30,146 nt of DNA from Candidatus Rifleibacteriota bacterium (GTDB lineage: Bacteria > Muiribacteriota > Ozemobacteria > Ozemobacterales > Ozemobacteraceae), in the NCBI GenBank assembly GCA_051747585.1, contig JBNJGH010000037.1, positions 1 through 30,146 of the forward strand. Direction: 5' to 3'. Below the pieces are notes generated by a model. That model saw only the letters and a list, made by a program, of their open reading frames with translations. It had not been told where the DNA came from and made no database searches. The number at the start of each line of letters is the position of its first letter. Position 1 is the first letter of the stretch. Both the position numbers and the translations under genes were made by a program. Below, one piece after another: positions 5,951 to 25,902 of this stretch.

Positions 5951-5955
5951 AAAGT

Positions 5956-6199: not shown

Positions 6200-6233
6200 A
6201 AAGAAAAACTACCGGCGTGAAGCCGGTAGTTTT
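6200..6233 (-). terminator. Intrinsic terminator
   Basis: Stem aaaactaccggc / gccggtagtttt with a 5-nt loop. The minus-strand tail is TTTTTCTTT. Confidence 0.85.
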
Positions 6234-6625
6234 ATGCCTGAAATGTTTATATAAAGCTGTAAATTGTTTTTTTATTGTTGGAGTTACTGCATTCTATGAC
6301 TCAGAAGAAGCTACTACACTTTGTCTGAAAGCTGCGACCAGTATCATGAATCTTATCCAGATTTTTGCTATATTAAATGCTATAATCATTTTGCTGCCTT
6401 TCTGTGAGGTTCAATATGATTGTTGTTTATCTTTTGCTGTAAAAATTCATTGATTAAAAGATGACGTTTTTAGTTACAAAGCTTTGAAAATACTTTGATT
6501 AATTCTGCTGATTTTGTGCTTCAATGTCTTAACAGGCTTAATATGGTAGAGAGAAAGCTGAGAGACTATCTATTGCTTTGTCAGAACCCTTAGTTTGATA
6601 GAACCAGGCCTTTTTTTACTTACAC
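6200..6625 (-). ncRNA. Candidate sigma54-dependent sRNA 1 (about 425 nt)
   Basis: Bounded by a -24/-12 promoter and a terminator, with no long ORF on this strand. Contains repeated AGCA/AGCT motifs, AANAANAA motifs and several local stems. Confidence 0.6.
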
Positions 6626-6635
6626 TTATTATACA

Positions 6636-6652
6636 TGCAATTAGGATGCCAA
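6636..6652 (-). promoter_or_regulatory. Sigma54 -24/-12 promoter
   Basis: Minus strand TTGGCATCCTAATTGCA versus consensus TTGGCACG-N4-TTGCW, with exact GG-N10-GC spacing. Confidence 0.8.
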
Positions 6653-6708
6653 GGTTTGTGACGGGCTTAAATAGAGGAAAACAGGGGAGCAGCTCTGAAT
6701 CGTTCCTA

Positions 6709-8190
6709 TTATTTTGGGCGCTTTATGCCCAGTTTGTTCATTTTAGACTCAAGAGTCGTCGGCTTTAAATCGAGTAATTCAGCGGCTCCACCTGATCCGC
6801 GAACTTTCCAGTTGCATTTTTCCAACATTGAAAGGATGTGTGCTTTTTCCACAGCTTTTAAGCTTTGGGGTGTAATTTGTTTAACACCAGGGGTTTTAGA
6901 AGTGTGAAAATTTGACGTTTCAGGAATTTCAAGCACTAATGTGTTGGAATCACACATAATCATAGCCCGTTCGATGTGGTTTTTTAACTCGCGAATGTTG
7001 CCGGGCCAGTTATATTGATGCATAAGAGCCAGAGAGACTTCGCTCAACCGGGGAGCTGGTTTACCCATTTTTTCAGAAAACAGCTTTATGTAAGCTTCTG
7101 CAATTAGCTTTAAATCATTACCACGATCTCTTAACCGAGGAAGCTGAATTGGGAAAACATTAAGACGGTAATAAAGGTCCTGGCGAAAATTCTGCTTTTT
7201 TACTTCGGCAGCGAGGTCCCGGTTAGTTGCAGCAATTACCCGAACATCGACATCGATTTGTGAGGTTGAGCCTATTCTTTCGAATTGATTTTCCTGTAAT
7301 ACTCTCAGGAGTTTGCTTTGTAATTCAAGAGGTAATTCGCCAATTTCATCGAGAAAAATACTTCCCTTATCTGCCAGTTCAAATTTACCAATTTTGCGAT
7401 TGATTGCGCCGGTAAAAGCTCCCTTTTCGTGGCCAAAAAGTTCACTTTCGATGAGGTTGGCCGGGAGTGCCGCACAATTGACCGTTATAAGGGGCATTTC
7501 TTTTCTTTGACTGCTTTTGTGCACAGCTCTTGCTATAAGCTCCTTGCCTGTGCCTGTTTCACCATTTATAAGAACGATTGAGTCTGTGGGCGCAACCTGT
7601 ATTACCAGCTTCATGACTTCCTGCATAGCCGGACACTCTCCTATAATGTCAGGCTCTTCGGTACTTCGTGCAATTTCTGATTTTAGCGAAACATTTTCCT
7701 GTTCGAGCTTTTTTTGCAGATTTAAAATTTTGTCGTATGCGTTTTTAAGTTTTATTTGAGCTGTTCTTAGCTCACTTATGTCATGAATAATTAAATTTAT
7801 GCGATCAATTTCGTTTTCTTCATCTAAAATTGGGTAGGCATTAACATCCCAGTAATTTGCTCTGTAGTTGTAATTGAAGCTGATTTCTTTTTCTTCCACA
7901 GAGGTTTTTGTAATAATTACATTGTTTATGATTGCGCCCAGATCTTGAGCCGCCTGGGGAAGAAGCTCAGAAATGCTTTTTTCCAGACAGCTTTCTTCAT
8001 CGAGAACCAAAAACTCGACAAATTTATGGTTAAGTCTGATAACCTTTTGCTGAGGGTCTACTGCAAGCATGATAACAGGTGCGGAATTGTAAATCTGTTG
8101 CAAAAACCCGAGGGCTTCGCAGGCATGACCGCAGGGCACCAGTTCGTGGGTGCCGGGTAGAAAATTTCCTGTCTGTTTTACTTTATTCAT
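6709..8190 (-). CDS. Sigma54 enhancer-binding protein (PAS + coiled coil + AAA+ + Fis-type HTH)
   Basis: GETGTGKE Walker [34 protein letters not shown]-terminal [21 protein letters not shown]-terminal PAS-like segment. Confidence 0.96.
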
Positions 8191-8243
8191 ATAAATTCAA
8201 AATTTAAAATTTTAATTTCGCTTATATTGTGAATTTAAAAGAA

Positions 8244-8274
8244 AAAAATTGCAACAGTTTCTATTGCAATTTTT
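8244..8274. promoter_or_regulatory. Palindromic operator-like site
   Basis: AAAAATTGCAACAG-ttt-CTATTGCAATTTTT, 13/14 matching arms, between divergent genes. Confidence 0.5.
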
Positions 8275-8461
8275 GCGCATTGATTATTATTTTTCTGCAA
8301 AAAATAGTATACCTGCCCCGGAGATCTCGGTGGATTGTTTAGCTTTTTTATCGGAAATTATTGCTTTATGGATTGTCTAAATTTATAAAAGTATTGAAAA
8401 TTGATTCAGAAAAGGTTAATTTCTTTTTTGCTTTATAAAATACAGGAGGCTTAATGCAGCA

Positions 8462-8647
8462 ATGACATTTCCCGGAAAAAAATTATCTGATGAAGAAGTT
8501 ACAGAATTGCGTTCTGAAAAAATGGAGCTCAATCGTAAGTCACGCCGACAAACCGGCATGAAAATGGTTTGCAAGGGTAAAGCTGATGGCGTATTAGAAT
8601 GCAAAACATCTGAAGGAATTTGTCCGGATTACGAAATTTGCCACTGA
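8462..8647 (+). CDS. Small Cys-rich protein (61 aa)
   Basis: AGGAGG at 8444-8449, four Cys in the C-terminal half (C-x9-C-x6-C-x5-C-H), and a terminator directly after the stop. Confidence 0.7.
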   Translation: MTFPGKKLSDEEVTELRSEKMELNRKSRRQTGMKMVCKGKADGVLECKTSEGICPDYEICH

Positions 8648-8661
8648 CCTGCTAACTTTTT

Positions 8662-8710
8662 CATAAAAAAAGCTTCTTAACCGGTTTGCCGGTTGGAAGC
8701 TTTTTTTATG
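8662..8710 (+). terminator. Intrinsic terminator (potentially bidirectional)
   Basis: cataaaaaaagcttc / gaagctttttttatg arms around an inner aaccgg / ccggtt stem. Confidence 0.85.
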
Positions 8711-8733
8711 TGCAATAAAATTTAGAAGATTAA

Positions 8734-8851
8734 AGATTGCTTCGTCGTTTCACTCCTCGCAATGACAGACCCAAACTGTCTTTATTTCCTGTGGTTAGCG
8801 GAGCAATCTAAATGTCTTGAAACCGTTATTAACCAACAAATGGAGAATAAC
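8734..8851. repeat. REP-like element (AGATTGCTTCG...CTCGCAATGAC type) with shared flank
   Basis: agattgcttcgtcgtttcactcctcgcaatgacag followed by a decayed inverse unit (agcaatct). 8802-8851 is an inverted copy of 11442-11490. Confidence 0.75.
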
Positions 8852-8871
8852 CGGTTAAATAGTAGTAAGTA

Positions 8872-8900
8872 TTGCCTGTGATTTTCATTTGGTCTATATT
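8872..8900 (+). promoter_or_regulatory. Sigma70-type promoter for the antiporter
   Basis: TTGCCT-17 nt-TATATT. Confidence 0.55.
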
Positions 8901-8911
8901 GAACATACAAT

Positions 8912-8959
8912 AATTAGTTTCAGGCCGGTCTAATGATAATAATTGCCGGGTCTCTGATT
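8912..8959 (+). promoter_or_regulatory. Candidate cis-regulatory RNA, Na+-I (DUF1646) riboswitch-like
   Basis: Begins just after the predicted TSS. Closing pair aattag/ctgatt encloses ...CAGGCCGGTC...AATTGCCGG.... Lies upstream of a KefB-type antiporter. Resemblance to the motif is from memory only. Confidence 0.4.
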
Positions 8960-8985
8960 TACTGAACGTGAGGGTAATTTAAGAG

Positions 8986-10209
8986 ATGGACATTCTTTTA
9001 ACCATTGGTTTTTTGCTTATAGCCGGATTTACCGTCGGTATGGTTTTTCATCGGCTGGGATTGCCTAAAATTATTGGTTATACCCTTGCAGGCGTAGCTC
9101 TTAGCCCAAATAGTATTGAGTTGTTCAGTAAGAGCATAATTCAGCGGACAAATCCACTTCTTGAAGTATGCCTGGCTTTTATTGCCTTTGAGGTTGGCGG
9201 TTCATTAAAGTGGAGTAAGATAAAAGAGCATGGAAAACAGGTCTTAAGTATAACTGTCATGGCCGGTATTGCACCTTTTATAATGGTTAGCCTCGGGGTT
9301 TATGTTTCGGGCATTTTTCTGAACTCCACTGTCTTTGATACTCATATGCAACTTTGGTTGTTTTCTTTATTGCTGGGAGCTATGTCTTCGCCAACTGCTC
9401 CTGCTGCAATTCTTGCTGTAATCCATGAATATAAGGCCAGAGGCGAAGTCAGCGATACAATACTTGGGGTTGTGGCCCTGGATGATGTTCTGGGAATTGT
9501 GCTATTCAGTCTTACTATTGCAGTCATGTCAGTTTTTACATCAATTGAAGCAGGTGGACAACTGTTTGGCAGTTCGCTGCTCTATTCACTTTTTGAAGTT
9601 GGTGGTGCTGTTGCAGTTGGGGCAGGAATTGGTTTTGCTTTTATAATGATAGGTCGCTTTCTAAAGCTTGAGGGAGACGGGCAGTGGTTTGTTATTATCT
9701 TTTCTTTAATAATTTTATGTGCAGGTCTGGCCAGCCTGTTTGAGGTTGATAAGCTGATGGCTTATATGGTCATGGGCATAGTAGTAGTAAACAAATGTAG
9801 TAAGCATAAGCTGATTTTTAAAATTTTGCGTCGATATACAGAAGAATTGATTTTTCTTTTTTTCTTTCTCCTGAGTGGCTTGCACCTTAATATAAGAGCG
9901 ATTCCTCAGACTGCTTTGCTGATTTTATTCTTTGTTGTTTTTCGGGCATTAGGAAAGTTTGCCGGCGCTGCGATCGGTGGCAGGATCGTAAATGCGAGTA
10001 AAAATGTAAAGAAATATACCGGGCCAAGTTTGCTTCCCCAGGCCGGTATTGCTATAGGTCTTGTTTTAAGTATTTACAAGCAGAAAGGTTTTTTAGAAAT
10101 TTCTGATTTACTTCTTGCAACTGTAATGGGAGCGACAATAATTAATGAGCTTATAGGGCCTCTTGTCACCAAATATTCTTTGTTGAAATCAGGTGACATT
10201 AAAGAATAA
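8986..10209 (+). CDS. CPA2/KefB-type cation:proton antiporter (membrane domain only)
   Basis: About 12-13 TM segments; LPKIIGY, SPTAPAA, VVALDD, RALGK, LLPQAGIAIGL, INELIGP motifs. Confidence 0.93.
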   Translation: MDILLTIGFLLIAGFTVGMVFHRLGLPKIIGYTLAGVALSPNSIELFSKSIIQRTNPLLEVCLAFIAFEVGGSLKWSKIKEHGKQVLSITVMAGIAPFIMVSLGVYVSGIFLNSTVFDTHMQLWLFSLLLGAMSSPTAPAAILAVIHEYKARGEVSDTILGVVALDDVLGIVLFSLTIAVMSVFTSIEAGGQLFGSSLLYSLFEVGGAVAVGAGIGFAFIMIGRFLKLEGDGQWFVIIFSLIILCAGLASLFEVDKLMAYMVMGIVVVNKCSKHKLIFKILRRYTEELIFLFFFLLSGLHLNIRAIPQTALLILFFVVFRALGKFAGAAIGGRIVNASKNVKKYTGPSLLPQAGIAIGLVLSIYKQKGFLEISDLLLATVMGATIINELIGPLVTKYSLLKSGDIKE

Positions 10210-10233
10210 AAACGAAAATGTTAGCGAACCTAC

Positions 10234-11358
10234 CTATAAGTTTAATGGTTTCAGATGTTCTATACCTATTTTTCCACCTTTGAGTAGTTTATCAAATAAC
10301 GAAGGATCTTTTCTTACAGCTTCTCGAATAATCATTAATCCTCTTAAGTAAGAAGCATCCTTTGTGTATGCACCAGCGTCTGCTGAATATTTTAATCCCC
10401 GTTTACATCTTACCGTAATCCGCCATGCCACTTCTTTGTCTGCACCCATTTGACGTAAGAGCTTAAACGTTCTAAAAAATGAATGTTTTAAGGCCCAGTG
10501 AACACCAAGAACGCGTAGAGCAAAAAGTGGCAGGCCGTCTTTTATCCCATTTTTAAATTCGTTATAAACAGCAAGACCTTCTTCAGTTTTTAAATAACCG
10601 GGCAAGCCGGTAGAAAACATTTTTAAAGGGTATTTTCTGCCGTTCTGGGCGCGGATGGCATGCACGCCTATTTCGTGCAGAATCAGGCGTTTTGCATCTC
10701 TTTTAGAAAATCTGCTGTTACCGTTAATTTTTACTTTTCGCGAGCCGGGTAAGACCGAGGCTCGTGCCCCCATGTTTTCATAGATTTTAATTTTCCATTC
10801 GTTGAGATTGTAATCCTGCAGCGCTTTTTCCAGGATCTTTTTTAGATCGAGTGGAGAAAGAGTTTTTTCGTATTCTGTAACTTTTACTTCTCTTAAAATT
10901 TTATGCGCTTCAAGAATCAGTTCCGGTTCAGGTGCAGGGTATAGTTCGCAACAAAGTCGGCTGAACTCATCTGGATCAGAGGTGAGAATTATTGCAGCCT
11001 TGGTTTTAAGAAGTTCAAGGTAAGACTTCAGTATTTCTGAGTAAAAGCCTTCCTGAGGCAATTCAACATCTGCAAAGTAAAAATTGCGTAATTTATCCGG
11101 AATTGGTTTAAAAGAAAAAACCGGGTTATAGACTTTGTTCTGAGCCATTGCTTCAAAAAATTTCTTTTTTTCCACTTTTTGAGAGGCCGACAGTGGATTA
11201 AGCCTGGAAGTAAATGCTACAGTTCTTCGATGTTTGTACAGCTGCTTATCTGCTTCTATTTCTCTGTTGGCAGGCTCAGGTAATGTCTGCGCCCGCGAGC
11301 AAACTGAAATAAGCAGAATGAACAACATCAGGATATTTTTAATTCTTTGAAAATTCAT
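10234..11358 (-). CDS. DUF1704 / MATCAP-like zinc carboxypeptidase with a signal peptide
   Basis: HEIGVH, TEEGLA, RCKRG, YTKDASYLRG and GKIG motifs. Likely start is ATG 11358, with GGAG SD. Confidence 0.88.
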   Translation of the reverse strand: MNFQRIKNILMLFILLISVCSRAQTLPEPANREIEADKQLYKHRRTVAFTSRLNPLSASQKVEKKKFFEAMAQNKVYNPVFSFKPIPDKLRNFYFADVELPQEGFYSEILKSYLELLKTKAAIILTSDPDEFSRLCCELYPAPEPELILEAHKILREVKVTEYEKTLSPLDLKKILEKALQDYNLNEWKIKIYENMGARASVLPGSRKVKINGNSRFSKRDAKRLILHEIGVHAIRAQNGRKYPLKMFSTGLPGYLKTEEGLAVYNEFKNGIKDGLPLFALRVLGVHWALKHSFFRTFKLLRQMGADKEVAWRITVRCKRGLKYSADAGAYTKDASYLRGLMIIREAVRKDPSLFDKLLKGGKIGIEHLKPLNL

Positions 11359-11441
11359 TAAATTATTCTCCAATAATGACAATATAGTTGTAAATTATAG
11401 GATTAAAGCAATATTTGATCAACCTCAGCAGATTAAGTTCA

Positions 11442-11665
11442 GTAATTCTCCATTTGTTTATAATAACTCTTTCAAGACATTTAGATTGCTTTGCTTCGAC
11501 ACCGCTCAGCACAAGCGCTTCGCTCCCAATGACAGCCCGTGCGGTCCTTGAGCGGAGTCGAAGGGACTCTGTAACCATCCATTGGTGGTTTCGACTCCGC
11601 TCAACCACCAATATATAATGACAGCCCCAAATTGTCATTGCGATGAGCATCGCGAAGAAGCAACC
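11442..11665. repeat. Composite REP cluster
   Basis: AGATTGCTT...CAATGAC unit interrupted by cttcgacaccgctcagcacaag. Then the inverted pair ttgagcggagtcgaa / ttcgactccgctcaa and an inverse gtcattgcga...gaagcaa unit. Confidence 0.8.
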
Positions 11666-12781
11666 TTATTTCCAGAAGTGTTCAACCAGTTTGTATCGGT
11701 TTTTTAATCCTACGGAGCGGCCCAAACAGACCAGCATATGAAGGAAATAGGGAATACGTCCAAACATTTGAACTCCGAGTATGGTGCCGCAGCCACGTTT
11801 GTTAGCAAGGGGCACTACCCAACCCGGATCAAGAGGATAAAAAGGTTTGAGTGCTTTTTTGTCAAGGTGTCTGAGCAAATTCTCGGCGGCTTTTTGTCCC
11901 TCAGACAGGGAAAATTGAACACCCATTCTTAACTTTTTATTCTTGTATTTGAAACCGGCAGCGTCACCGGCAGCAAATACACCGTTGCCAAGCTGCAGAC
12001 ATTCATCTACTTCGAGACGCCCTTGCGAATCTTTGTTGAACGACAGTTGCCGGATAAAGTCATCGGTGCATACGCCTGCTGCCCACAACGCCAGGGCGTT
12101 ATCGTAATCAGTGCCATCAGACAAGCTGACTTTGTTTCCATCGAAGCCTGTCATTGAGGTTTGGGTTTTCACCTCAATTCCGGCTTTTCTTACCTCTTTT
12201 TCTATAAAAGCAATTTGTCTGGGAGGCAATGCACTGCAAAGCGACGAGCCTCTTTCTACAATTGTAACTTTTCTTTTTAAGCCAATTTTTTTGAGAAAAT
12301 TATCAATATTTGAAGCAAGTTCTACACCGGTATAGCCGCCACCACAAACAATGAAACGCTTTTGGGTTGAACTTTCTACCAGCTTTCTTACTTCAAGTGC
12401 ATTTTCGATTGAATCAAGCTTATATGGCGGCTTCACCCAACTTTTGCATGGGCTCAGATTTGTTTTGCTTCCGCCACAAATTATTAAGCCATCGTAAGGA
12501 ATTTTTTTTGATTCTGTATGAACCACTTTTTCTCTTAAATCTATTTTTATGACCTTTTCCTGTAAAAAATCAAAATTCCAGCGTTTTGCGGCTTCTTTAA
12601 GCGGATATGCAAGTGCTTCAGGATTCAGAGACTGACCGACTATGTCAGGCAACATCGGCAGAAACTGGCTCGAATCCTTTTTATCTATAAGGGTTGTCTG
12701 GTGAGTTTTATGACTTGTTGCCAGATATTCGGCTGCTGCAAGTCCTGCAAAGCCACCGCCTATAATTATAATTTTACTCAT
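11666..12781 (-). CDS. Type II NAD(P)H:quinone oxidoreductase-like flavoprotein
   Basis: GGGFAG (FAD), GGGYTGVELA (second dinucleotide fold), WAAGV, FAAGD. Confidence 0.88.
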   Translation of the reverse strand: MSKIIIIGGGFAGLAAAEYLATSHKTHQTTLIDKKDSSQFLPMLPDIVGQSLNPEALAYPLKEAAKRWNFDFLQEKVIKIDLREKVVHTESKKIPYDGLIICGGSKTNLSPCKSWVKPPYKLDSIENALEVRKLVESSTQKRFIVCGGGYTGVELASNIDNFLKKIGLKRKVTIVERGSSLCSALPPRQIAFIEKEVRKAGIEVKTQTSMTGFDGNKVSLSDGTDYDNALALWAAGVCTDDFIRQLSFNKDSQGRLEVDECLQLGNGVFAAGDAAGFKYKNKKLRMGVQFSLSEGQKAAENLLRHLDKKALKPFYPLDPGWVVPLANKRGCGTILGVQMFGRIPYFLHMLVCLGRSVGLKNRYKLVEHFWK

Positions 12782-12849
12782 TTATGCCTCTCTTTCTATC
12801 TATCTTATTAATCATAACAGTAAATCCACAGTTATTTTTCATTTGTTTA

Positions 12850-13761
12850 TTAATGTCGGTTATATATCAAATAGATTTCTTCAAGAAGTAAAGCAAGCCC
12901 TACCAACAGCTGTACGCTAATCGCCAGTTTAGAAGAAATAGTCAATTTGTCTTTTTTGTCATAGTATTTTTTTAAAATAAATGCTGCAAAAAAAGTAAGT
13001 GGAAACCCAAGAAAAGCAAATCCTGCAGCTGTCTTGGAAATATAATTTTGATGTGCACAATATAGAATGGTTGCCCAGGCCATTAATTCAAGAATTACAA
13101 AAAGTATCCATCCTTTTTCAGCGCCTGTTTTAACCACGAGTGTATTTTTGCCACCTTTTGCATCTGTTTCTGCATCAGGAATTTCGTTTGCAACAAGAAT
13201 GCCGCTGGTTAAAAAACCGAAAATGGTTGAAATAATCAGTAATTCAATGTCAGGGTAGCCTGTGCCTGCAAAAAATGATCCACCTGCTATGCAGATCGGT
13301 CCAAATAAAATAAAAACTGTTATTTCACCCAGGCCTCGATAAGCTAAAGCCAGAGGTTTACATGAATACTGCCAGGCAAACGCCAATACCAGAAGATACA
13401 AAAATGGTGTTTCCCATCGATTAATCAAAATTGATATTGTCAAAAGGCAAGCTGCTGAACAGATTGCAGAAATTACGGCGGCTTTGTAATACCAGCTTAC
13501 CGAAAGTTTCCCTTCCTGAATAAGCTTTGAGCCGCCAAAGAAGCCGTAATAGTTTTCATCAAGATTATCTACGCCGGTTTTTGAGTCCGCTGCATCATTA
13601 ATTAAATTGGCCGAAAGATGGGTAGCAGTTACCGTAATTGCGCCAAGAATTAATAAAACAGGATCAATATTCTTAGAACTTCTAACAAAAGCAAATAAAA
13701 AAGGCAAAAGACAGGCTGAAGTAAATGGCAGTCTTAACGCTCTAATGAACTGTTTTAACAT
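12850..13761 (-). CDS. menA: 1,4-dihydroxy-2-naphthoate prenyltransferase-like (UbiA family)
   Basis: ALRLPF, ANLINDAADSKTGVD, YRGLGE, NEIPDAETDAKGGKNTLVV; multiple TM segments. Confidence 0.85.
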   Translation of the reverse strand: MLKQFIRALRLPFTSACLLPFLFAFVRSSKNIDPVLLILGAITVTATHLSANLINDAADSKTGVDNLDENYYGFFGGSKLIQEGKLSVSWYYKAAVISAICSAACLLTISILINRWETPFLYLLVLAFAWQYSCKPLALAYRGLGEITVFILFGPICIAGGSFFAGTGYPDIELLIISTIFGFLTSGILVANEIPDAETDAKGGKNTLVVKTGAEKGWILFVILELMAWATILYCAHQNYISKTAAGFAFLGFPLTFFAAFILKKYYDKKDKLTISSKLAISVQLLVGLALLLEEIYLIYNRH

Positions 13762-13842
13762 TATCTCGAATTTTCCTGACCGCTGATGAGTTTTTGTTCA
13801 TTTTTACTGAGTTGGCGATTGCTGACTGAACGAAACCGGTAT

Positions 13843-14877
13843 TTAAAACAGCTTCTTCAAGAAAACGATTATGTTTTCTTTGTCAGCTGTTTCAATATCA
13901 AGATCTGTAATTTGTTTTTCTGCACTGAAAAATAGCTCTTGCATTTCTTTTCTGGCAGAAGCAAAGGCATTACAGTCGTGAAGCATCTGCATAACATTTT
14001 TAGAATTTTTGCTGCATGGATTTTTCATATAACTGTTCCAACAATCGGTAAATTCTTCATTTCGGTTTGATTCCAGACCAATTACGAAGGGGAGGTTTTG
14101 AAAAACATCGCGTCGGGCTTCTTCACTTTTGTCGTTACCATTTAACAGGGCTTCAAGGTCTTCAAGATCGTCTTTTATCTGATAGGCCTTGCCAAGAATG
14201 TGCCCAAGTTCAAAAAGCTTTTTTTCTTCCGAGGTTTCGCAGTTACCTAAAAGTCCACCTATTACGAGGGGAATAGAGAAAGAGTATTCAGCGGTTTTGT
14301 GGCAATGAAGTTTTCTGGTAATGGCCGAATCATGTGTGGGGCAATCGCGAAGACTTACTTCGGTTAAGGCTCCTCCGCCCGTTGTTAAGGCAACATCCAG
14401 CAAAAGATTCAGGGCACGGTTTTTAAGTGCATCCGATAGCTGCAGATCGGCGAAGGTTTTACAGGCCCGGGTAAAAATAAGGTCTCCGGTTATTAAAGCA
14501 AGAGAGCGACCATCTCTTACCCCTGCTTCGCCGGGTTTTATTCTTAGAAGTTCATGTAAAGAAGGTTGGCCACGCCTTTGAGGGCTTCCATCTATAAGGT
14601 CGTCATGAATCAGAGCAAATAGATGAAATAATTCGATTCCTGCAGCAGCAGACAATTGGGTGCTTTTTTCCAGTGGTTTGTAAGCTGAATTAGCAATTAA
14701 AAACAGCCGAGGACGAAGACGCTTGCCGCCAGATAAGGCAAACTCAAGAATTCTGCTCTTTATTTTATTAGAAACCCTGGCAAAAGATGGTCTTTTAAGA
14801 AAAGTACTAATGTTCTTTTCTAACTCTTTTTCAAGTGCAGATTTCCAAGTGTGGAAATTTGGGTTAAAGTGCAGCAC
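13843..14877 (-). CDS. Polyprenyl diphosphate synthase (IdsA/GGPPS-like)
   Basis: GGKRLRP, FARM HDDLID..RRG, GD, KT, SARM YQIKDDLED. GTG start overlaps the DoxX stop. Confidence 0.92.
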   Translation of the reverse strand: MLHFNPNFHTWKSALEKELEKNISTFLKRPSFARVSNKIKSRILEFALSGGKRLRPRLFLIANSAYKPLEKSTQLSAAAGIELFHLFALIHDDLIDGSPQRRGQPSLHELLRIKPGEAGVRDGRSLALITGDLIFTRACKTFADLQLSDALKNRALNLLLDVALTTGGGALTEVSLRDCPTHDSAITRKLHCHKTAEYSFSIPLVIGGLLGNCETSEEKKLFELGHILGKAYQIKDDLEDLEALLNGNDKSEEARRDVFQNLPFVIGLESNRNEEFTDCWNSYMKNPCSKNSKNVMQMLHDCNAFASARKEMQELFFSAEKQITDLDIETADKENIIVFLKKLF

Positions 14878-15311
14878 TATTGATACCAGCGCCCTGCTAA
14901 TGCTTTTATTTTAGCACCTATGCTCAGACTTCCGCCACCGGTGAAAATAAGTGATAAAAAAACTATCGCAAGAGACAAGGCATGACTGTAAACGTTAAAA
15001 GGATCTCCTTTTCCGGCATGCATAAGAAAGGCCACCAGCATTGTAAAAGAAAGCAAAGCTGCAAAAATTCTTACCCCAATTCCCAGGAGCAAAAACAGGC
15101 CTCCTGCAGTTTCTGAGAATGCAGCCATAAAGCCCCAGAATGCCGGTGCGAAATTTATTCCAAAAACTCCCATTGCACCGCCTACCTTTTGCCACAACTC
15201 AACTCCACCGGATAATTTGGGTACACCGTGGATCATCATTATAATGCCAAGTCCAAGTCGTAAGATAAGTAACCCAATGTTGACAAGTTTGCCAGAAGTT
15301 TCTTCAGTCAT
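14877..15311 (-). CDS. DoxX family membrane protein
   Basis: LLILRLGLG...HGVPKL, ETAGG...LLG, GGGSLS; four TM segments. Confidence 0.92.
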   Translation of the reverse strand: MTEETSGKLVNIGLLILRLGLGIIMMIHGVPKLSGGVELWQKVGGAMGVFGINFAPAFWGFMAAFSETAGGLFLLLGIGVRIFAALLSFTMLVAFLMHAGKGDPFNVYSHALSLAIVFLSLIFTGGGSLSIGAKIKALAGRWYQ

Positions 15312-18203: not shown

Positions 18204-18310
18204 ATTTGGCCTCTCAGTAAGTTGCAGACTTTGGAGTCAGTGTTTTTGTATTTATATGTTTTATAATACAACTAAAAAGCAAATTTGAAAATATGTCTCT
18301 AATAATTTAA

Positions 18311-18339
18311 TTGACTCAGGAAATGTACAGAGTTAAGAT
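18311..18339 (+). promoter_or_regulatory. Sigma70-type promoter for the TBDR
   Basis: TTGACT-17 nt-TAAGAT. Confidence 0.55.
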
Positions 18340-18378
18340 TTGCACATATAGTTGTGTTAAGTATTGTTTGGAGGTAGT

Positions 18379-20307
18379 ATGAAAAAAGCTTGTTTTATTA
18401 TTTTATTGCTAAGTCTTGCCAGTATTGCTTCGGCAGCAACATTCTCGCTGAATGCAATAAACATTGACGCTGAACGTAGTCAGTTAGATTTATGGTTCCC
18501 CGGAATTTCGGAAAATATTTCCAGTGATTCTATGCGACTACGTCATACTAAAAGTGCTAATGATTTGATTGAGTTAAATCCATCGGTTGATCTTGTTTCT
18601 TATTCCAGGGGTATGACTCTCGTGCCTGAGGTCAGGGGGTTCCCAAATTATTCAACTCTGGTAATGCTCAATGGAACACCGATCAATACTTCCTGGGGGA
18701 ACTTCAATAGTCTTACTTTTCTACCTTTGCACAGTTTTTCAGGTGTTTCTTTGACCAAATCAAATGAAGCTATTGTTTATGGGCCCAACACACTTGGGGG
18801 GGCGTTAAATTTAAAAATGCCCGATGCAATTGATCTTGAAGGTTTTAGAACTCGGTTTGAGTATGGTGAGTCCGGTAATATTCGTAAAGAAGCTACCTAT
18901 GGCTATGTAAGCGAAGACGAAAATAACATGCATCTTTTTGGACTTTTTACTGACGAAGGGCACCGTTACCAGGAACACAGTGATTTTGACGCCACAAGCT
19001 TTATGTACCGTGGGCAGATTCAGTTGAACAATGAATATAAGTTGAAATTAAGTTGGTGGAATTTGAATTCATCTTATGAATTGCCTGACCGTGGTGATCC
19101 TGCGGGGCCATTCCAAAACTGGGATTCCTGGAATACTTCTCATGCAGACATCATTTTGCAACGGGATCTAAAAAATGGTCAGCAGTTTACTTTCAGGTTT
19201 TTCAGAAACGATGATTTTTCCGATATGACTGATTATTCGGATAATACCTACACTAGAGTTCTGAATAAAAGTGAGATGTCGCAGTACAGATCTGGCAGTG
19301 AAATTTTATATAATCTCGATCTAAACGATAAGAATCGCCTTTCTATGGGGGTGACTCAACAGGTGAGTGATTGTACTACCCCGGCTCTTGCCGGTGGCAG
19401 ACAGGATGAAACCATCAAAGGTGGCTTTATCAGCAATCGTTATGAAGCAAATGATAAATTTGCATTACAAATGACCTATAGAAGCGATAACCACTCGGAA
19501 TCCGGGACCGAAAACAGCTGGTCTGTAGCAACAGAATATCAGCCGGACTCCAATCATACTTTCGTTCTGAGTGGTGGCGAGGCAAACCGTTTTCCAACTG
19601 TCAGAGAACTTTATATGCAGCATAGGGTATTTAAAGACCCGATTACAGGTAAATGGGTTTACTCGGTTCCGCTGTCGGGTAATATTAATATCAAGCCCGA
19701 GAGAGCAAAAAATATAGAAATGCATTGGAAATGGGCATTTGCCGAAAATTACGATTTTTCTGTAGGCTACTTCAAATCTATTATTACCGATTACATGAAC
19801 AGAAGCAGAACAGGCTTGCCGGCACCTAACCCATTAGTAATCTGGGAAAACCTTGACAATGTAGATCTCAATGGCTGGGAAAGCCGTCTGAATGGTAAAA
19901 TCAATGAAAACCTGAATTTCTGGGTTGCATACACCAGGATTGTTGATGCTGATAATACTTCTAATGGACAGAGAGTGGATTTTAAGAGAAACTATAAGCT
20001 GACAAGCGCCATTAACTGGGAAAAGGATAAAGACAGTGCTGCGTTGTTTATAGAACGTCTTGGGCCTTCGCCTTATTATGCCATGCCGCCAAAAGGAATC
20101 CCCGGGGCAGGTAAAAATACAGAGCTGGGTGCTGCAACCAAAATCGATTTAAGCTATAAAAGGCGGCTTACCGATCGCTCAAGCTTATTCGTAAATCTTA
20201 ATAATCTGACCGACGAAGAAATCGAGATTGACGGCCACGCAATCGGTTTGCCGGCTGTTTATGCTCCACCAAGAAATATTGCCGTGGGTCTTGAAACAAT
20301 CTGGTAG
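18379..20307 (+). CDS. TonB-dependent receptor
   Basis: Signal peptide from ATG 18379 (GGAGGT SD); plug motifs VRGF, LVMLNGTP, YGPNTLGGALN; barrel motifs FPTVRELY, IKPERA, NNLTDE; C-terminal Trp. Confidence 0.93.
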   Translation: MKKACFIILLLSLASIASAATFSLNAINIDAERSQLDLWFPGISENISSDSMRLRHTKSANDLIELNPSVDLVSYSRGMTLVPEVRGFPNYSTLVMLNGTPINTSWGNFNSLTFLPLHSFSGVSLTKSNEAIVYGPNTLGGALNLKMPDAIDLEGFRTRFEYGESGNIRKEATYGYVSEDENNMHLFGLFTDEGHRYQEHSDFDATSFMYRGQIQLNNEYKLKLSWWNLNSSYELPDRGDPAGPFQNWDSWNTSHADIILQRDLKNGQQFTFRFFRNDDFSDMTDYSDNTYTRVLNKSEMSQYRSGSEILYNLDLNDKNRLSMGVTQQVSDCTTPALAGGRQDETIKGGFISNRYEANDKFALQMTYRSDNHSESGTENSWSVATEYQPDSNHTFVLSGGEANRFPTVRELYMQHRVFKDPITGKWVYSVPLSGNINIKPERAKNIEMHWKWAFAENYDFSVGYFKSIITDYMNRSRTGLPAPNPLVIWENLDNVDLNGWESRLNGKINENLNFWVAYTRIVDADNTSNGQRVDFKRNYKLTSAINWEKDKDSAALFIERLGPSPYYAMPPKGIPGAGKNTELGAATKIDLSYKRRLTDRSSLFVNLNNLTDEEIEIDGHAIGLPAVYAPPRNIAVGLETIW

Positions 20308-21633: not shown

Positions 21634-22548
21634 GTGAAAAGATTTTTTACGGTTTTATCAGTTTTTTTGCTTGTGGGGCAATTAAACGCCCAAATGAATC
21701 CTGGCGGAAGATTTAAAAAATTTCAGGGAAAATCGCCCAAAGATAACTCTGCCAAAATGCTTGAAAAATACGATGAAAATAATGATGGCTTTCTTGACAT
21801 GAAAGAAAGAATGAAAGCCCGAAAAGAAAAAATGAAAGGCTTTAACAGGCCGGATTCGCCAGAAAAACCTTCCGATAATAGGCCACATATGCAACCGGAA
21901 AAGAATACCGCCTTTTCTAAAACAGCTCAAAAAATTGAAAGATTAAAAGAAAAAAATCCTCAGAAATATCAGGTAATTCTTAAAAAGTTTGACAGAAATA
22001 ATAATAATAAGATCGATAATAGCGAAATTGGGCAGCTTTTGCATGAGCAAAAAATGCAAAAAGATTTACTTAAAAAATTTGATAAAAACGGTAATGGAAA
22101 TCTGGATGAAGATGAAATGGAATTGCTTGAAGCTGAACATCAGAAAAATATGTCAGGATTTGCCCAGCATCAGCCGGGTTTGTTTGCTTCGATTCTAGAT
22201 CAATTTGATAAAAATCAAAATCAAAAGCTTGATTTTTCTGAATGGGTTGCCGCTCAACAAGAAGGGGTTTTTCCACCGCCCCCGCCATCGAGTGCGCATG
22301 GCGCAACTGGGTTTAATCAACCACAGCCGCCATCTTATATGAATCAAAATAAGGGTCGGGAAGAAATGCAACCGCCTCGGCCACCTCAGCAGCCGAAGCA
22401 ACAACAGCAACCTGGCCAATCATCGCCAAAACCTCAGCCGCAGCCTGAACCAGAGAATGATGATGCAGGCTTGCTTGATGGAGTTGAATTAAAAAGCGAT
22501 GATCAGGGGGATCAAAAAGATCCAGATATCAAATACCTTGATTTTTAA
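21634..22548 (+). CDS. Secreted EF-hand protein with a Pro/Gln-rich tail
   Basis: GGAGG SD and GTG start, signal peptide, four loops DENNDGFLDMKE, DRNNNNKIDNSE, DKNGNGNLDEDE and DKNQNQKLDFSE. Confidence 0.85.
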   Translation: MKRFFTVLSVFLLVGQLNAQMNPGGRFKKFQGKSPKDNSAKMLEKYDENNDGFLDMKERMKARKEKMKGFNRPDSPEKPSDNRPHMQPEKNTAFSKTAQKIERLKEKNPQKYQVILKKFDRNNNNKIDNSEIGQLLHEQKMQKDLLKKFDKNGNGNLDEDEMELLEAEHQKNMSGFAQHQPGLFASILDQFDKNQNQKLDFSEWVAAQQEGVFPPPPPSSAHGATGFNQPQPPSYMNQNKGREEMQPPRPPQQPKQQQQPGQSSPKPQPQPEPENDDAGLLDGVELKSDDQGDQKDPDIKYLDF

Positions 22549-24479
22549 TTTTTCAGATTATCAATTTCTACCGGTTTTGAATTGTCCGGATATTTCAGCT
22601 TGAATATACGACAGTAAAAATAAAGTTCACTTTTTAAAGAATGTTTAATATTCTCTGCCTGTCTAAACCCATGACCTTCACCTTCATAGGTGACATAGCA
22701 GGTGGGAATTTTTTTCTTTTTAAGAATTTTGTAGAGTTCTTCGGCCTGGTTTGGCGGAACAACTTTGTCATCCAGCCCCTGAAAGAAAATAACCGGGCAT
22801 GAAAGTTTTTCTGGAAAATTGATCGGCGATCGGTTTTTATAGATTTCAGCTTTTTCAGGGTAGGGGCCAATCAAATTATCCATATATCTCGATTCAAATT
22901 TATGTGTTTCTTTTGCCAGAATTTCGAGATCACTCAAGCCAAAATGGCTTGCTCCGGCTTTAAATGTGTCGGTAAAGGTCAGGGCACAAAGGGTAGTATA
23001 CCCTCCGGCGCTACCGCCTCTGATCGCAATTTTATTGCTGTCGACAAGTCCTTCGTTTTTCAGATACAGTGCACCCTTTTCACAATCTCTTACATCGATA
23101 ATACCCCAGCTTCCTTTAAGGCGGTCACGATATGCTCTGCCAAATCCTGTGCTGCCACTGTAATTTACATCTAGAACAGCAAAGCCTCTGGTGGTCCAGA
23201 ATTGAATGTCGAGTCTCAAGGTTGGGTTACTGCAGCCTGTAGGGCCACCATGGCTGCAGACCAGCAAAGGAGGTTTTTCGTTTTCCGGAATTTTGTAATC
23301 GGGGTTAGCAGGAGGGTAATAAAATGCATGGGCTTTCTGGTTTTTTGCTACTTCGAAATAGATGGATTCCGGTTTCGAAATAAAGCTTTTGGCTACAGGT
23401 ATTTCAGAAGATCCAAATAAAACCTGCAGATTAGATGAATTATAGTCGAATTGAACAACTTCGGCCCTGGTTTTGTAACCTGCACCGATAAAATATATAT
23501 GATCTTTGTTCAATGTAATAGAAGAATAGAGCTGATAAGGAAAATTAAGGTTTTCCAGGGCTTCAGACTGCATATTAATTATACCTGCATGCCAGCAGGC
23601 GTCTTCTGTCCAGGTAACAAAAATTCTGTCATCATCCAGAATTTGGTAAGGCTCTTTTGCAAAAGACCAGGGTGGCCCTGAAAAATCTGCGTCTTTGTTA
23701 AAAACGAGTGAACTTTTCTCGTTTTCATATTTAAAAATGTTCCACCAGCCATTTTTATCAGAAATATAGAATAAACTTTTATTGTGCCATTGAGGCCGGC
23801 ATACGGATTCATTACTGCATCCGCTTATTTTTTTGCTGGATTTTATGTTGCCTTCATCAGCGACAAGAGCAGTGTGTAGTTCTGTACCGTCCCATGGCAT
23901 TTGTGGGTGGTTCCAGGTAATGTATGCCAGCTCTTGCCCATCGGGTGAAATTCGGGGGCTGGAATAAAAATCATTGCCCGCAATTATTTTGCTGACTTTT
24001 CCATTTTCCAGATTAATTTTAACAATCGAGTTTTCTGGATTAAGATCACTTTTACTATGATCTTCCATTACTGCAAAAAGAAGATTACGTTTTGGGTCAA
24101 TGTTGAAATCTGCAAAACGGTAAGAAGGCTCATTGGTTAATTTTGTAACCGTTCCGTCCAGGGAAAGACGATAAATTTGTTGATCACTGAATTCAGTGAA
24201 GTAAAAATAATTTGACTGGTCTGAGGCAATACATAATCCACCATATTCGTGTACCCTGGATCTGATGTTGAAACGAGATGGAAGAACTTCTTCGGTTACA
24301 TCGTTATCCAGGCAAACGAGGGTGTTTCGGCCTTTTTCTGATGGTCTTGCCTCTAAAATGAAAAGCTTTTCTTTTAATTGTAAGATTTCAACCGGCCGGT
24401 TTGCTTTTTCTACCATCTTTTCGGGCGTTAAAGCAGAAGGCCATGAACCGGGAGTGAGTGGAATTCTATTATCCTTCAT
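22545..24479 (-). CDS. S9 family peptidase (prolyl oligopeptidase / acylaminoacyl peptidase type)
   Basis: GSWPS N-terminus, HGGP, GGSAGG nucleophile, QGLDDKVV (Asp), GEGHGF (His). Confidence 0.95.
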   Translation of the reverse strand: MKDNRIPLTPGSWPSALTPEKMVEKANRPVEILQLKEKLFILEARPSEKGRNTLVCLDNDVTEEVLPSRFNIRSRVHEYGGLCIASDQSNYFYFTEFSDQQIYRLSLDGTVTKLTNEPSYRFADFNIDPKRNLLFAVMEDHSKSDLNPENSIVKINLENGKVSKIIAGNDFYSSPRISPDGQELAYITWNHPQMPWDGTELHTALVADEGNIKSSKKISGCSNESVCRPQWHNKSLFYISDKNGWWNIFKYENEKSSLVFNKDADFSGPPWSFAKEPYQILDDDRIFVTWTEDACWHAGIINMQSEALENLNFPYQLYSSITLNKDHIYFIGAGYKTRAEVVQFDYNSSNLQVLFGSSEIPVAKSFISKPESIYFEVAKNQKAHAFYYPPANPDYKIPENEKPPLLVCSHGGPTGCSNPTLRLDIQFWTTRGFAVLDVNYSGSTGFGRAYRDRLKGSWGIIDVRDCEKGALYLKNEGLVDSNKIAIRGGSAGGYTTLCALTFTDTFKAGASHFGLSDLEILAKETHKFESRYMDNLIGPYPEKAEIYKNRSPINFPEKLSCPVIFFQGLDDKVVPPNQAEELYKILKKKKIPTCYVTYEGEGHGFRQAENIKHSLKSELYFYCRIFKLKYPDNSKPVEIDNLKN

Positions 24480-25356
24480 TTGTGTCGTTACCTGTTTTTT
24501 CTCTTAGAAGTCGTGCAACTTCTTCTGTTGATATCTGGTAAAGTTTACTGCAAAAATGGCAATAAACTTCCGGTTTTTCCTTGTTTTCGATAATTTCTTC
24601 CAGATCACTTATCGGCAGGCAGGATATTGAGTAGAGCACCTTTTCGCGGCTGCAGGTGCACTCGGCAGATAAAACTCTTTGTTCCATAACTTCCAGATCA
24701 TTTAAACCCAGTAGTTCACTTAAAACCATAATATCTATCGATTGTTTCAAAGCCTGTTTGATGGTTTTATCGTTGAATCTTTCGAGAAGAGGTACAAAGT
24801 CTTCTGCTTTACCTTCAGGCATTCTGCTCATACGAAGGCCTACAGCATTGTGCAGTTGGTGATCCCTGCTTGTGGCACTGATTTCGATTGCAGTCGGTTT
24901 CTGCTGCAGATCATTGAAATATCGTGCCAGACCCTGTTGTAAACACATCGGGCTGCAGGCTATCTGTTTCTGGGATATTACACCCCGACGGGTCGAATGG
25001 GTAAAAGTGAGCGAGCCACTGTCGCCAAGGGGTGCTGTAAGTGGGGCGTTTTCTTTGCTGTCATATTGGTTCAAAATCTTGGCGTTAGTGTAGCCTCTTA
25101 AATTTCCGGTTCGGGAAACATCTACAAAGCAGCCACCCATGGGGCCGCTGACCTGAGCTTGCAGGGCAAGCTTTTCGTCTTTATTACCCAGGTCTGATGA
25201 CATTATGGCCACTGCTGCCAGGGCTTCTGCAAGAAATCTGCCGGCAGTAGGGCCGGATAAGTGTTTTCGTTCAAGTTCTTTTGCGGCATCGGTAACATTA
25301 ACGTATGTTAATGAAATCATTTTTTCTTTAGAAAAGGCGTATATTAGTTGATCCAT
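24469..25356 (-). CDS. hslO: Hsp33 redox-regulated chaperone
   Basis: GNLRGY, and the zinc site CTCSREK...CHFC. Confidence 0.92.
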   Translation of the reverse strand: MDQLIYAFSKEKMISLTYVNVTDAAKELERKHLSGPTAGRFLAEALAAVAIMSSDLGNKDEKLALQAQVSGPMGGCFVDVSRTGNLRGYTNAKILNQYDSKENAPLTAPLGDSGSLTFTHSTRRGVISQKQIACSPMCLQQGLARYFNDLQQKPTAIEISATSRDHQLHNAVGLRMSRMPEGKAEDFVPLLERFNDKTIKQALKQSIDIMVLSELLGLNDLEVMEQRVLSAECTCSREKVLYSISCLPISDLEEIIENKEKPEVYCHFCSKLYQISTEEVARLLREKTGNDTNEG

Positions 25357-25456
25357 TAATCCAAATTCTCTTCGCTACGGTAGCCGGAATACGGCCCGTT
25401 AAAATTTTGTTCAACAGGGTTCGAACTGCAAATCAGTCGGTGTCCTGAAGGTACAC

Positions 25457-25485
25457 AGTATACATTCTTTCAGGCTTAAATTCAA
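25457..25485 (-). promoter_or_regulatory. Sigma70-type promoter for hslO
   Basis: Minus strand TTGAAT-17 nt-TATACT. Confidence 0.55.
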
Positions 25486-25566
25486 CAGCGTCTCCGGCAA
25501 TTCTCGGTGCAATGGTTATCAGCCGGTAAAAAACATTATTGTGCTATTTTCGCAATAATTGTGTGT

Positions 25567-25595
25567 GTGAAAAAAACACAGGTGAAAAAAACACA
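25567..25595. promoter_or_regulatory. Tandem repeat, candidate bEBP enhancer (UAS)
   Basis: GTGAAAAAAACACA at 25567-25580 and 25582-25595, about 80-110 bp upstream of the predicted sigma54 TSS. Confidence 0.5.
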
Positions 25596-25648
25596 CCTAA
25601 AAAATACTGTATCTGCATTGAAAAAAGCTTAAAGTGGAAAATCTAAAG

Positions 25649-25665
25649 TTGGCACGCTTGTTGCT
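25649..25665 (+). promoter_or_regulatory. Sigma54 -24/-12 promoter
   Basis: TTGGCACGCTTGTTGCT matches consensus TTGGCACG-N4-TTGCW. Confidence 0.9.
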
Positions 25666-25675
25666 TCAATAAAAA

Positions 25676-25902
25676 CTGTCGTTCTTTGATAACAATGGGT
25701 TCAATTATTCTAACCTCGCAGCAGCAATTGTTGCGAAGTATTTGCAGCAATTGTTGATAGCTTTACAAACAGCATAGTTCAGATTTTTTATAATTGAGCC
25801 TTTGTATTTACGCTTAGTCGCGTCCCCGCGCGACTTCACGTATCCTCTCAAAAGATCCTCTCACTTTGCCCCTGGCATTTCAGCCCAGGGGCCTTTTTTT
25901 TT
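25676..25902 (+). ncRNA. Candidate sigma54-dependent sRNA 2 (about 225 nt)
   Basis: Between the sigma54 promoter and a terminator. Long closing stem, twin GCAGCAATTGTTG hairpins, a UCCCC-loop hairpin and twin ATCCTCTCA tracts. Confidence 0.7.
25868..25902 (+). terminator. Intrinsic terminator
   Basis: gcccctgg / ccaggggc stem followed by C and T9. Confidence 0.9.

Follow-up and report, generated by a model that had tools for sequence, protein, structure and literature searches.

A predicted sigma-54-driven family of small RNAs in Riflebacteria that share an invariant twin CCUCUC box, and an unrelated decayed operon in the same window

Results

Two sigma-54 units in one Riflebacteria contig

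We analysed a 30,146-nt stretch of DNA from a Candidatus Rifleibacteriota bacterium (contig JBNJGH010000037.1), referred to here as the window. Within 19.7 kb of it lie two intergenic units that each run from a sigma-54-type promoter to a terminator: unit 1 (6625-6205, minus strand) follows the gene for a predicted PAS-domain activator, and unit 2 (25676-25902, plus strand) lies between the genes for Hsp33 and a MATE efflux protein (Table 1). Neither has an open reading frame (ORF) of at least 60 amino acids on its transcribed strand. An initial annotation had taken the two units for a pair of RNAs built on repeated AGCA/AGCTTT motifs. Both units are present, but they are not a pair; judged from comparison with related genomes, unit 2, behind its sigma-54 promoter, is a gene for a non-coding RNA from a family of small RNAs (sRNAs) that spans the class, and unit 1 is unrelated to it. 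We likewise see no overall alignment between the units, the best E value of 0.002-0.004 under permissive scoring being treated as none. In what follows, G000 is the genome of the window, other G numbers are relatives, C numbers are contigs, and g1 and g5 are genera.

Unit 2 belongs to a class-wide sRNA family

When unit 2 was compared by BLASTN with 41 relatives, its last ~70 nt turned up again in 23 of the 24 genomes from the same family, often at several places in one genome. From these matches we took a set of 31 copies from 25 genomes, and we built a covariance model, R1, on the 3' module of the family. In the collection used, the taxonomic family is the whole order and the whole class (51 genomes). 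R1 matches 48 of these 51 genomes, including all 27 good ones (completeness of 90% or more, contamination of 5% or less); the three genomes with no match are 67, 69 and 86% complete. A phylum-wide search gave matches in all 32 family genomes searched, G000 included, and none in 20 good genomes of the phylum's seven other families. There are one to four copies per genome; G014 carries three in tandem, and G000 has a second copy on contig C97, at about 720-1070. It is the C97 copy, and not unit 1, that is the real sibling of unit 2. The suggestion that the lineage has a redundant, undescribed set of sigma-54-promoter sRNAs is supported, with unit 2 as one of them, and fails for unit 1, which is no member of the set.

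The promoter of unit 2 is the single match in the window to the exact pattern TGGCAC-N5-TTGCW. With up to two mismatches allowed, the pattern occurs 15 times in the window, compared with 17.0 +/- 3.8 times in shuffled sequence, such that only the exact match stands out. Across the family, a -24/-12 element lies 106-390 nt upstream of the twin box, on the same strand, in 30 of the 31 copies; none was found within the 434 nt available upstream of the G019 copy. We placed the predicted start of the sRNA ~12 nt past the GC of the -12 element and its end at the T-run; a search of sequencing runs listed no RNA run containing the region. The terminator of unit 2 is not listed by a simple terminator scan, as its loop of 9 nt falls outside the scan range of 3-8 nt.

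The most conserved part of the sRNA is a 24-mer, UCCUCUCAAAAGAUCCUCUCACUU, that holds two CCUCUC boxes and is identical in all 31 aligned copies, with the sequences of the adjoining P3 hairpin and terminator stem varying around it. The CTCTC tracts singled out in the initial annotation are real in unit 2, where no other feature is as well conserved; the tracts in unit 1 show no conservation. As an independent sample, we scanned metagenome contigs for exact matches to the 24-mer, and recovered 65 stretches, 54 of them distinct. A terminator-like stem follows the module in 61 of the 65, and, of the 50 copies whose upstream sequence extends for 400 nt or more, 44 have a strict -24/-12 match 180-291 nt upstream; the upstream palindrome described below is present as well in 34 of these 44.

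The sRNAs range from 140 to 420 nt in length and contain a variable insert. Copies in G024 and G013, the shortest at 140-167 nt, have the twin box only. In genus g1, inserts of the type that we call type b (e.g., G000:C97:760-1000 and loci L018-L022) are G-poor, with 13-17% G, and contain repeated (G)UCACAGCA-like words. Over all 30 inserts, GTCAC occurs 27 times (5.8 expected) and CAGCA 30 times (8.2 expected), these words not being kept outside genus g1, and UCCUC is found 17 times (3.5 expected), in 11 of the 30 copies.

The predicted sRNA is structured and non-coding

Unit 2 folds with a minimum free energy of -71.7 kcal/mol, compared with -45.4 +/- 3.8 kcal/mol for 200 shuffles (z -6.92), none of which folds as well. 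An RNAalifold consensus of nine copies of the same type as unit 2 (type a) has 45 pairs, eight of them with compensatory change, arranged in a closing helix (P1), a long-range helix around the variable insert (P2), a hairpin (P3) and the terminator. Among 15 type-b-like copies from nine genera, five of the nine P2 pairs have changed on both sides. In these copies, 97% of the cells of P2 and the terminator pair and none of 500 shuffles reaches the covariation score; slid controls, in which the partners were moved by one to three columns, pair in 21-70% of cells. The terminator stem also shows compensatory changes among copies, and in other copies P3 remains a hairpin with a different stem sequence and a loop that is mostly C/U-rich. 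The structural case is weakened at one point, namely that P1 is beyond the reach of a covariation test because both of its strands are invariant.

Eight of 30 copies lack any ORF of at least 20 amino acids, and an ORF crosses the invariant core in five of the 30. Because no ORF is conserved among the 30 copies, we take the sRNA to be non-coding. The initial annotation had seen no convincing protein product in either unit; this stands for unit 2, but unit 1 has a conserved small ORF with a coding signature, as set out below.

Table 1. Positions of the features of units 1 and 2 and of their neighbours in the window, and of the operon-end twin boxes in three relatives
Feature	Position	Strand	Detail
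Unit 1 terminator	6205-6233	-	12-bp stem, 6 G-C pairs
ORF-B, 31 codons, MIIAFNIAKIWIRFMILVAAFRQSVVASSES	6294-6389	-	GAAAGG upstream at 6397-6402
Untranslated leader, ~235 nt	6390-6625	-	in the place of ORF-A in sister species; comparison of 7 genomes
Sigma-54-type promoter of unit 1, TGGCATCCTAATTGCA	6636-6651	-	1 mismatch
PAS / sigma-54 AAA+ / HTH_8 enhancer-binding protein, predicted activator of unit 1	6709-8190	-	Pfam Sigma54_activat 1.9e-74, PAS 3.4e-12
Hsp33 gene	24469-25356	-	left neighbour of unit 2
Two adjacent palindromic upstream activator sites, predicted to bind the activator	25565-25596	+	GTGTGAAAAAAACAC at 25565-25579; GTGAAAAAAACACAC at 25582-25596
Sigma-54 -24/-12 promoter of unit 2, TGGCACGCTTGTTGCT	25650-25665	+	exact consensus match
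sRNA gene (unit 2), type a, ~227 nt	25676-25902	+	predicted start, T-run end
Conserved 5' UCUUUGA, predicted 5' strand of closing helix P1	25683-25689	+	predicted partner UC-AAAGA, between the two boxes, at 25848-25855; from an RNAalifold consensus (9 type-a copies)
Long-range helix P2 around variable insert	25697-25800	+	GGGUUCAAUUA at 25697-25707 pairs with UAAUUGAGCC at 25791-25800
Hairpin P3, C-rich loop CCCC	25816-25835	+	consensus and fold
Invariant 24-mer UCCUCUCAAAAGAUCCUCUCACUU, predicted seed	25843-25866	+	CCUCUC boxes at 25844-25849 and 25857-25862
Intrinsic terminator GCCCCUGG / CCAGGGGC, then nine U	25868-25902	+	8-bp G+C stem at 25868-25892
MATE efflux gene (matE)	26030-27457	+	right neighbour; start codon 128 nt past unit 2
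Operon-end twin box, locus L085 (G006)	about 5002-5055		
Operon-end twin box, locus L086 (G017)		-	
Operon-end twin box, locus L087 (G015)	about 4026-4085		

A class-specific response regulator is the predicted activator

The sites upstream of the unit 2 promoter have the form GTGYG-A/T run-CRCAC. Palindromes of this form are found at 26 of 30 family promoters, compared with 1.3% of 20,000 random 160-nt genome windows, and their spacing is nearly fixed, most copies having them between -66 and -89 relative to the -24 element. Only five of the 123 sigma-54-like sites in G000 have the palindrome: those of the two sRNAs, that of an operon on C75, and single sites on C41 and C10. The C10 palindromes and promoter lie directly behind the gene for a response regulator with REC, sigma-54-AAA+ and HTH_8 domains (G000:C10:25518-26897). 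This regulator has one clear orthologue in each of the 51 class genomes, at 61-92% identity, with the next paralogues at no more than 46%; the best match in 20 genomes of other families is at most 48% identical. Homologues at 72-92% identity are labelled Riflebacteria, Rifleibacterium, Ozemobacteraceae or Ozemobacter sibiricus, and we take two others, labelled Clostridiales and Erysipelotrichia, to come from mislabelled bins. Because of the shared palindromes, the adjacency and the co-distribution, we predict that this class-specific NtrC-type response regulator activates the sRNA; it would bind the upstream palindromes and switch on the sigma-54 promoter. Two considerations temper this prediction. 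The shared motif, the adjacency and the co-distribution were seen among kin, and observations of this sort are not independent; moreover, four of the 30 family promoters have no match to the palindrome pattern, one of them having just 40 nt of upstream sequence.

The C10 locus reads, in order, HEAT-repeat protein, regulator, palindromes with sigma-54 promoter, PTS-EIIA-2 protein, HATPase_c_2 protein and nucleoside-diphosphate kinase (NDK), and the EIIA gene adjoins the regulator gene in 13 of 14 loci examined. In three genera (G006, G017 and G015), a twin box, CCUCUCAAAGAUCCUCUC, followed by a terminator lies in the 3' untranslated region of the EIIA / HATPase_c_2 / NDK operon next to the regulator gene, shortly past the stop codon of the last gene in G006 and G017 and past the last recognised gene in G015. 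The spacer between these boxes is one A shorter than in the stand-alone sRNAs, and no sigma-54 element of their own was found within 450 nt in any of the three. One seed module is thus used in two settings, in a gene of its own and at an operon 3' end, and, since the 3'-end version sits in a regulator-adjacent operon, we consider the module to be tied to the regulon of the regulator.

The operon-end copies also bear on the possibility that unit 2 acts in cis, as a leader or attenuator for the matE gene that follows it. The two have the same orientation and are close together, and genus g1 and G014 share the gene order Hsp33 / RNA / MatE. However, every copy of the sRNA ends in a strong terminator, the module is found at an operon 3' end in three genera, and sibling copies (C97, the G014 triplet and others) have different downstream neighbours or none. 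Because siblings have other neighbours, and three copies occur in tandem, we regard a leader function as very unlikely.

The palindrome-bearing promoter on C75 (G000:C75:1122, plus strand; locus L065) has the same tandem arrangement, GTGTGAAAAACGCAC and GTGCGAAAAACACAC. The operon behind it encodes exported-type proteins that belong to no family, and TPR proteins, with a signal-peptide-like start. This operon is probably a further member of the regulator's regulon.

Possible modes of action of the twin CCUCUC box

The CCUCUC box is near to the anti-Shine-Dalgarno sequence, yet distinct from it; the 16S tail of G000 is the usual one, GGATCACCTCCTT. At 1908 starts of long ORFs in G000, AAGGAG was counted 122 times, AGGAGG 88 times, AGAGGA 42 times and GAGAGG 15 times. 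GAGAGG and AGAGGA are thus minority sites, and a CCUCUC seed could for that reason be selective. The sRNA would pair its two invariant boxes with the GAGAGG-type ribosome-binding sites of selected messages and silence them. We regard such translational repression as somewhat more likely than not to be the mode of action. For the reading as a whole, in which a sigma-54 sRNA family under the control of the response regulator pairs through CCUCUC with ribosome-binding sites and unit 1 is a separate, decayed operon, we would claim moderate confidence. Two copies of hfq are present in G000, as are csrA and rpoN.

A candidate target is a SpoIIE-type PP2C phosphatase (G000:C46:8281), which has UUGAGAGGAU six bases before its AUG. 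The site, (G)AGAGGAU(C), is kept in all five genus g1 orthologues, G000 included, and G014 has the related GAGAGAGG; this conservation is no more than suggestive. A second candidate is a HATPase_c_2/cNMP-binding protein (G000:C176:3248). Several observations detract from the pairing model. The RNAduplex scan of translation-start regions, from which the candidates come, was noisy, with long interior loops, and we used it just to pick candidates. The phosphatase site could be a mere conserved ribosome-binding site of one genus. A search of G000 found no long genomic complement to the seed, the longest being 12 nt and mostly in a repeat element. Lastly, the boxes and the AAAAGA spacer between them are identical across 15 genera, which a protein-binding site would explain at least as well.

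What the invariant twin CCUCUC box suggests is either base pairing at ribosome-binding sites or a protein with affinity for CU-rich RNA, and not an AGCW-binding protein. As a protein sponge, the sRNA would use its twin AUCCUCUCA boxes, together with the AUCCUC motifs in type-b inserts, to dock an RNA-binding protein, probably a dimeric one, and would titrate it much as RsmY/RsmZ titrate CsrA and CrcZ titrates Hfq/Crc. The boxes and spacer are identical in 31 of 31 copies despite very different genome base composition, UCCUC is in excess in the variable inserts, and each genome has one to four copies, some in tandem, all of which would suit a sponge. However, the shortest copies have no more than the twin box, the GGA motif of CsrA is not exposed in the sRNA, and invariant seeds occur in base-pairing sRNAs too, such as Qrr. 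Moreover, no global regulator of bacteria that recognises CU-rich sites is known to us. We think a sponge unlikely, though it is the main rival of the pairing model. More speculatively still, the twin AUCCUCUCA box may be a portable Riflebacteria module, carried either by free-standing sigma-54 genes whose inserts evolve fast or by the end of the regulator's EIIA / kinase / NDK operon, that reprograms a set of partner-switching signalling proteins whose messages have atypical GAGAGG sites, or that titrates a CU-binding protein. We think this improbable; if true, it would constitute a phylum-specific global post-transcriptional circuit without a described counterpart.

Unit 1 is the remnant of a small-protein operon

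The promoter of unit 1 lies 58 nt behind the stop codon of the PAS activator gene, and a GG-N10-GC element is found at the same place behind that gene in all seven genomes compared. Six relatives, of which five belong to genus g1 and one to g5, show the same order of activator and unit 1, and their activator orthologues are 53-60% identical. In G001-G005, the promoter drives an ORF of 168-173 amino acids, ORF-A, which overlaps the start of a 37-amino-acid ORF-B that is followed by a terminator. ORF-A is thus present in five of the seven genomes and missing from G000 and G009; in G009 (genus g5), ORF-B is directly behind the promoter, and in G000 a relic of ORF-A corresponds to its last ~35 codons only, interrupted by stops (tblastn E 0.088). 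No Pfam family was found for ORF-A, and a word-indexed search returned one homologous cluster, a hypothetical protein of Candidatus Rifleibacteriota. A protein-database search with ORF-B gave no usable match, and a search for related loci with the PAS activator gave only distant relatives from other phyla.

ORF-B has relatives in 18 of the 51 genomes (six of six in g1, counting G000, and 12 of 15 in g5). Differences among them fall 168, 88 and 287 times on the first, second and third codon positions, and there are 105 synonymous codon changes in frame, compared with 20 and 20 in the other frames. The GAAAGG upstream of ORF-B is kept in six of seven genomes. With its open frame, its excess of third-position and synonymous changes and its ribosome-binding site, ORF-B bears the signature of a small-protein gene. 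Unit 1 as a whole folds no better than shuffles (z -1.06; 15 of 100 shuffles as good), and its CTCTC and AGCTTT words lie in the non-conserved leader. We take unit 1 to be what is left of a sigma-54 operon that encoded proteins, with the PAS activator next to it as the predicted regulator; only the small frame has been kept.

How much of unit 1 still functions in G000 can be questioned. ORF-B of G000 is six codons shorter than the 37-amino-acid form and, at 44% identity, the most diverged in genus g1, and this truncated frame may itself be decaying, which would count against a retained small protein. Carried further, unit 1 would be wholly a pseudogene in G000, with promoter, leader and ORF-B all decaying and no product; the loss of ORF-A and a 310-nt repeat element that abuts the unit fit this, as does the state of ORF-B. 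On the other side, the GG/GC of the promoter, GAAAGG, the start codon and the terminator are intact, and genus g5 likewise has ORF-B without ORF-A directly behind the promoter. We consider complete decay somewhat unlikely, and prefer to view unit 1 as an operon remnant with its small frame retained.

Units 1 and 2 are syntenic in genus g1, where they are about 8.6 kb apart. Their 19-kb spacing in G000 is due to an extra block of 11.6 kb (about 8.7-20.3 kb), missing from the relatives.

AGCW motifs are neither enriched nor conserved

The initial annotation had proposed a network around an AGCW-binding protein, and had named motif sharing no higher than a shuffled background as evidence against it. 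We compared motif counts with 2000 dinucleotide-preserving shuffles. AGCW occurs 12 times in unit 1, compared with 8.65 +/- 1.96 times in shuffles (fraction at least as high, 0.078), and five times in unit 2, compared with 3.08 +/- 1.35 times (fraction 0.147), such that neither unit exceeds the shuffled background. Higher ratios are seen for sub-motifs chosen after the fact, namely AGCTTT in unit 1 (4 vs 0.36) and CAGCA and CTCTC in unit 2 (4 vs 0.56 and 2 vs 0.12). The CAGCA words of unit 2 sit in a species-specific 16-bp hairpin, a repeated quasi-palindrome, and the counts in the nine type-a copies are 4, 1, 1, 0, 1, 0, 0, 0 and 0. Because AGCW is neither above shuffles nor conserved in orthologues, the case for repeated AGCA/AGCTTT motifs is weak and the proposed network is unsupported; the invariant element is the twin CCUCUC box.

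We accordingly give almost no credence to the idea that units 1 and 2 are redundant sigma-54 sRNAs that share AGCW motifs for one protein. Both do have sigma-54-type promoters and terminators, AGCW density in both is two to three times the genome average, and (G)UCACAGCA-like words are enriched in the type-b inserts of genus g1. Nevertheless, besides the shuffle fractions and the absence of CAGCA from most unit 2 orthologues, unit 1 goes back to an operon of two genes and carries a small ORF that is conserved, and the units share no homology and no common upstream sites, with no excess structure in unit 1. The example shows that sigma-54 units lacking long ORFs may share a window and still be unrelated.

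A genome scan for units running from a sigma-54 site to a terminator, as the initial annotation had suggested, found that eight of the 123 sites have a strict terminator within 600 nt. These eight include the two sRNAs, a Flp-type pilin gene, a lysine-rich small ORF and one ORF-less unit on C14, and unit 1 was missed by the strict rule. The promoter of the C14 unit (G000:C14:17460, minus strand) is sigma-54-like, TGGCATGTAAATTGCT; the palindrome upstream of it, GAGGTAAAATTACCTC, is of another kind, and a terminator follows 183 nt downstream. With neither a long ORF nor a CCUCUC box, the unit is a possible further small RNA.

Comparison with known systems

Rfam 15 gave no match in the whole window at gathering score, and we also scanned unit 2 (E up to 5) and four sibling loci (E up to 1) permissively. 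The unit 2 sRNA family is new in the sense that it is absent from Rfam 15. For annotation, R1 marks a class-specific RNA family missing from that release. The only models with weak matches on the 3' module are three anti-Shine-Dalgarno sRNA families, all rejected on score: MmgR/suhB (RF00519; 19.8-24.3 bits, including one match of 21.0, against a threshold of 41), anti-hemB (RF02837; 18.5-22.9 bits against 49.5) and Betaproteobacteria toxic sRNA (RF02278; 17.6-21.6 bits against 50). These families likewise have two exposed CU-rich boxes followed by a terminator, but their box is CCUCC(UCCC), compared with CCUCUC in the Riflebacteria sRNA. To our knowledge, none of the three has a sigma-54 promoter.

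Two parallels in overall design are the Qrr sRNAs and CrcZ/CrcY. Qrr1-5 of Vibrio are sibling sRNAs of about 100 nt that depend on sigma-54 and LuxO. They share with the Riflebacteria family a sigma-54 promoter with sites for an NtrC-type regulator, sibling copies, a long conserved seed stretch and a terminator of their own. They differ in that the Riflebacteria sRNA, from another phylum, is 140-420 nt long and has a helix-clamped variable insert and a duplicated CCUCUC seed, and no covariance match to Qrr (RF00378) was found at E up to 5 on unit 2 or at E up to 1 on the four sibling loci. CrcZ and CrcY of Pseudomonas are CbrB/sigma-54-dependent sponges with a repeated A-rich motif that binds Hfq/Crc. 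The likeness here lies in sigma-54 with a response-regulator activator, in long RNAs with short repeated motifs and in redundant copies; in the Riflebacteria sRNA, however, only the CU-rich box is conserved as a repeated motif, and the permissive scan of unit 2 gave no CrcZ/CrcY match. A sponge of the CrcZ/CrcY type based on AGCW was rejected, the motif being neither enriched over background nor conserved among orthologues.

Desulfovibrio offers a further parallel, from a different phylum. In Desulfovibrio vulgaris, the sigma-54-dependent Dv_sRNA2 is placed behind the regulator DVU0679 (PMC3333781), and two RpoN-dependent small RNAs are reported in D. alaskensis G20, with the site GTGTAAAAAACACACA given for another regulator, Dde_3003/DVU2934 (PMC4045070). 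In both lineages a small sigma-54 unit with a regulator site lies behind an NtrC-type regulator or under its control, which in Riflebacteria is predicted, and the site as quoted, GTGTAAAAAACACACA, resembles the Riflebacteria palindrome, a resemblance that we treat as a lead only. Hence the kind of arrangement, a sigma-54 sRNA behind an NtrC-type regulator, is already known elsewhere, and it is the family that is new.

Among the papers listed, our literature search found no published link between Riflebacteria and small RNAs, and we know of no cultured representative of the group. For Riflebacteria, the family provides a testable circuit, comprising a predicted activator, its binding site, the RNA genes and an invariant seed.

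Other features of the neighbourhood

An interspersed repeat of ~310 nt, with a MITE-like look (miniature inverted-repeat transposable element), occupies 5880-6192 of the window and has a long internal hairpin at 6000-6070. It has 342 BLASTN matches on 134 G000 contigs, and many contigs, C97 included, end in the repeat. Sub-threshold, miRNA-like Rfam matches at 6000-6070 were set aside as the hairpin of this element. A second short repeat, of the type GATTGCTTCGTCG...CTCCTCGCAATGACA, lies at 8700-8830, has 114 matches on 75 contigs, and marks the left edge of the 11.6-kb block. The block (8700-20300) lies between the gene for a 61-amino-acid protein and an EEP-family gene, is missing from the syntenic loci of five relatives, and reflects either an insertion or a rearrangement. 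Its genes encode an Na/H exchanger, a MATCAP-like peptidase, a pyridine-nucleotide oxidoreductase, UbiA, a polyprenyl synthase, DoxX, a DUF72 protein and a TonB-dependent receptor; the peptidase (10234-11382, minus strand) matches the MATCAP (microtubule-associated tyrosine carboxypeptidase) family at 1.8e-41. The 61-amino-acid protein (8462-8647, plus strand) belongs to no Pfam family; it has a Cys-rich C-terminus and an upstream AGGAGG, is 70-84% identical in six relatives, and its gene is always divergent from or adjoining that of the PAS activator. Finally, a 304-amino-acid protein with EF-hand pairs is encoded at 21634-22548 (plus strand).

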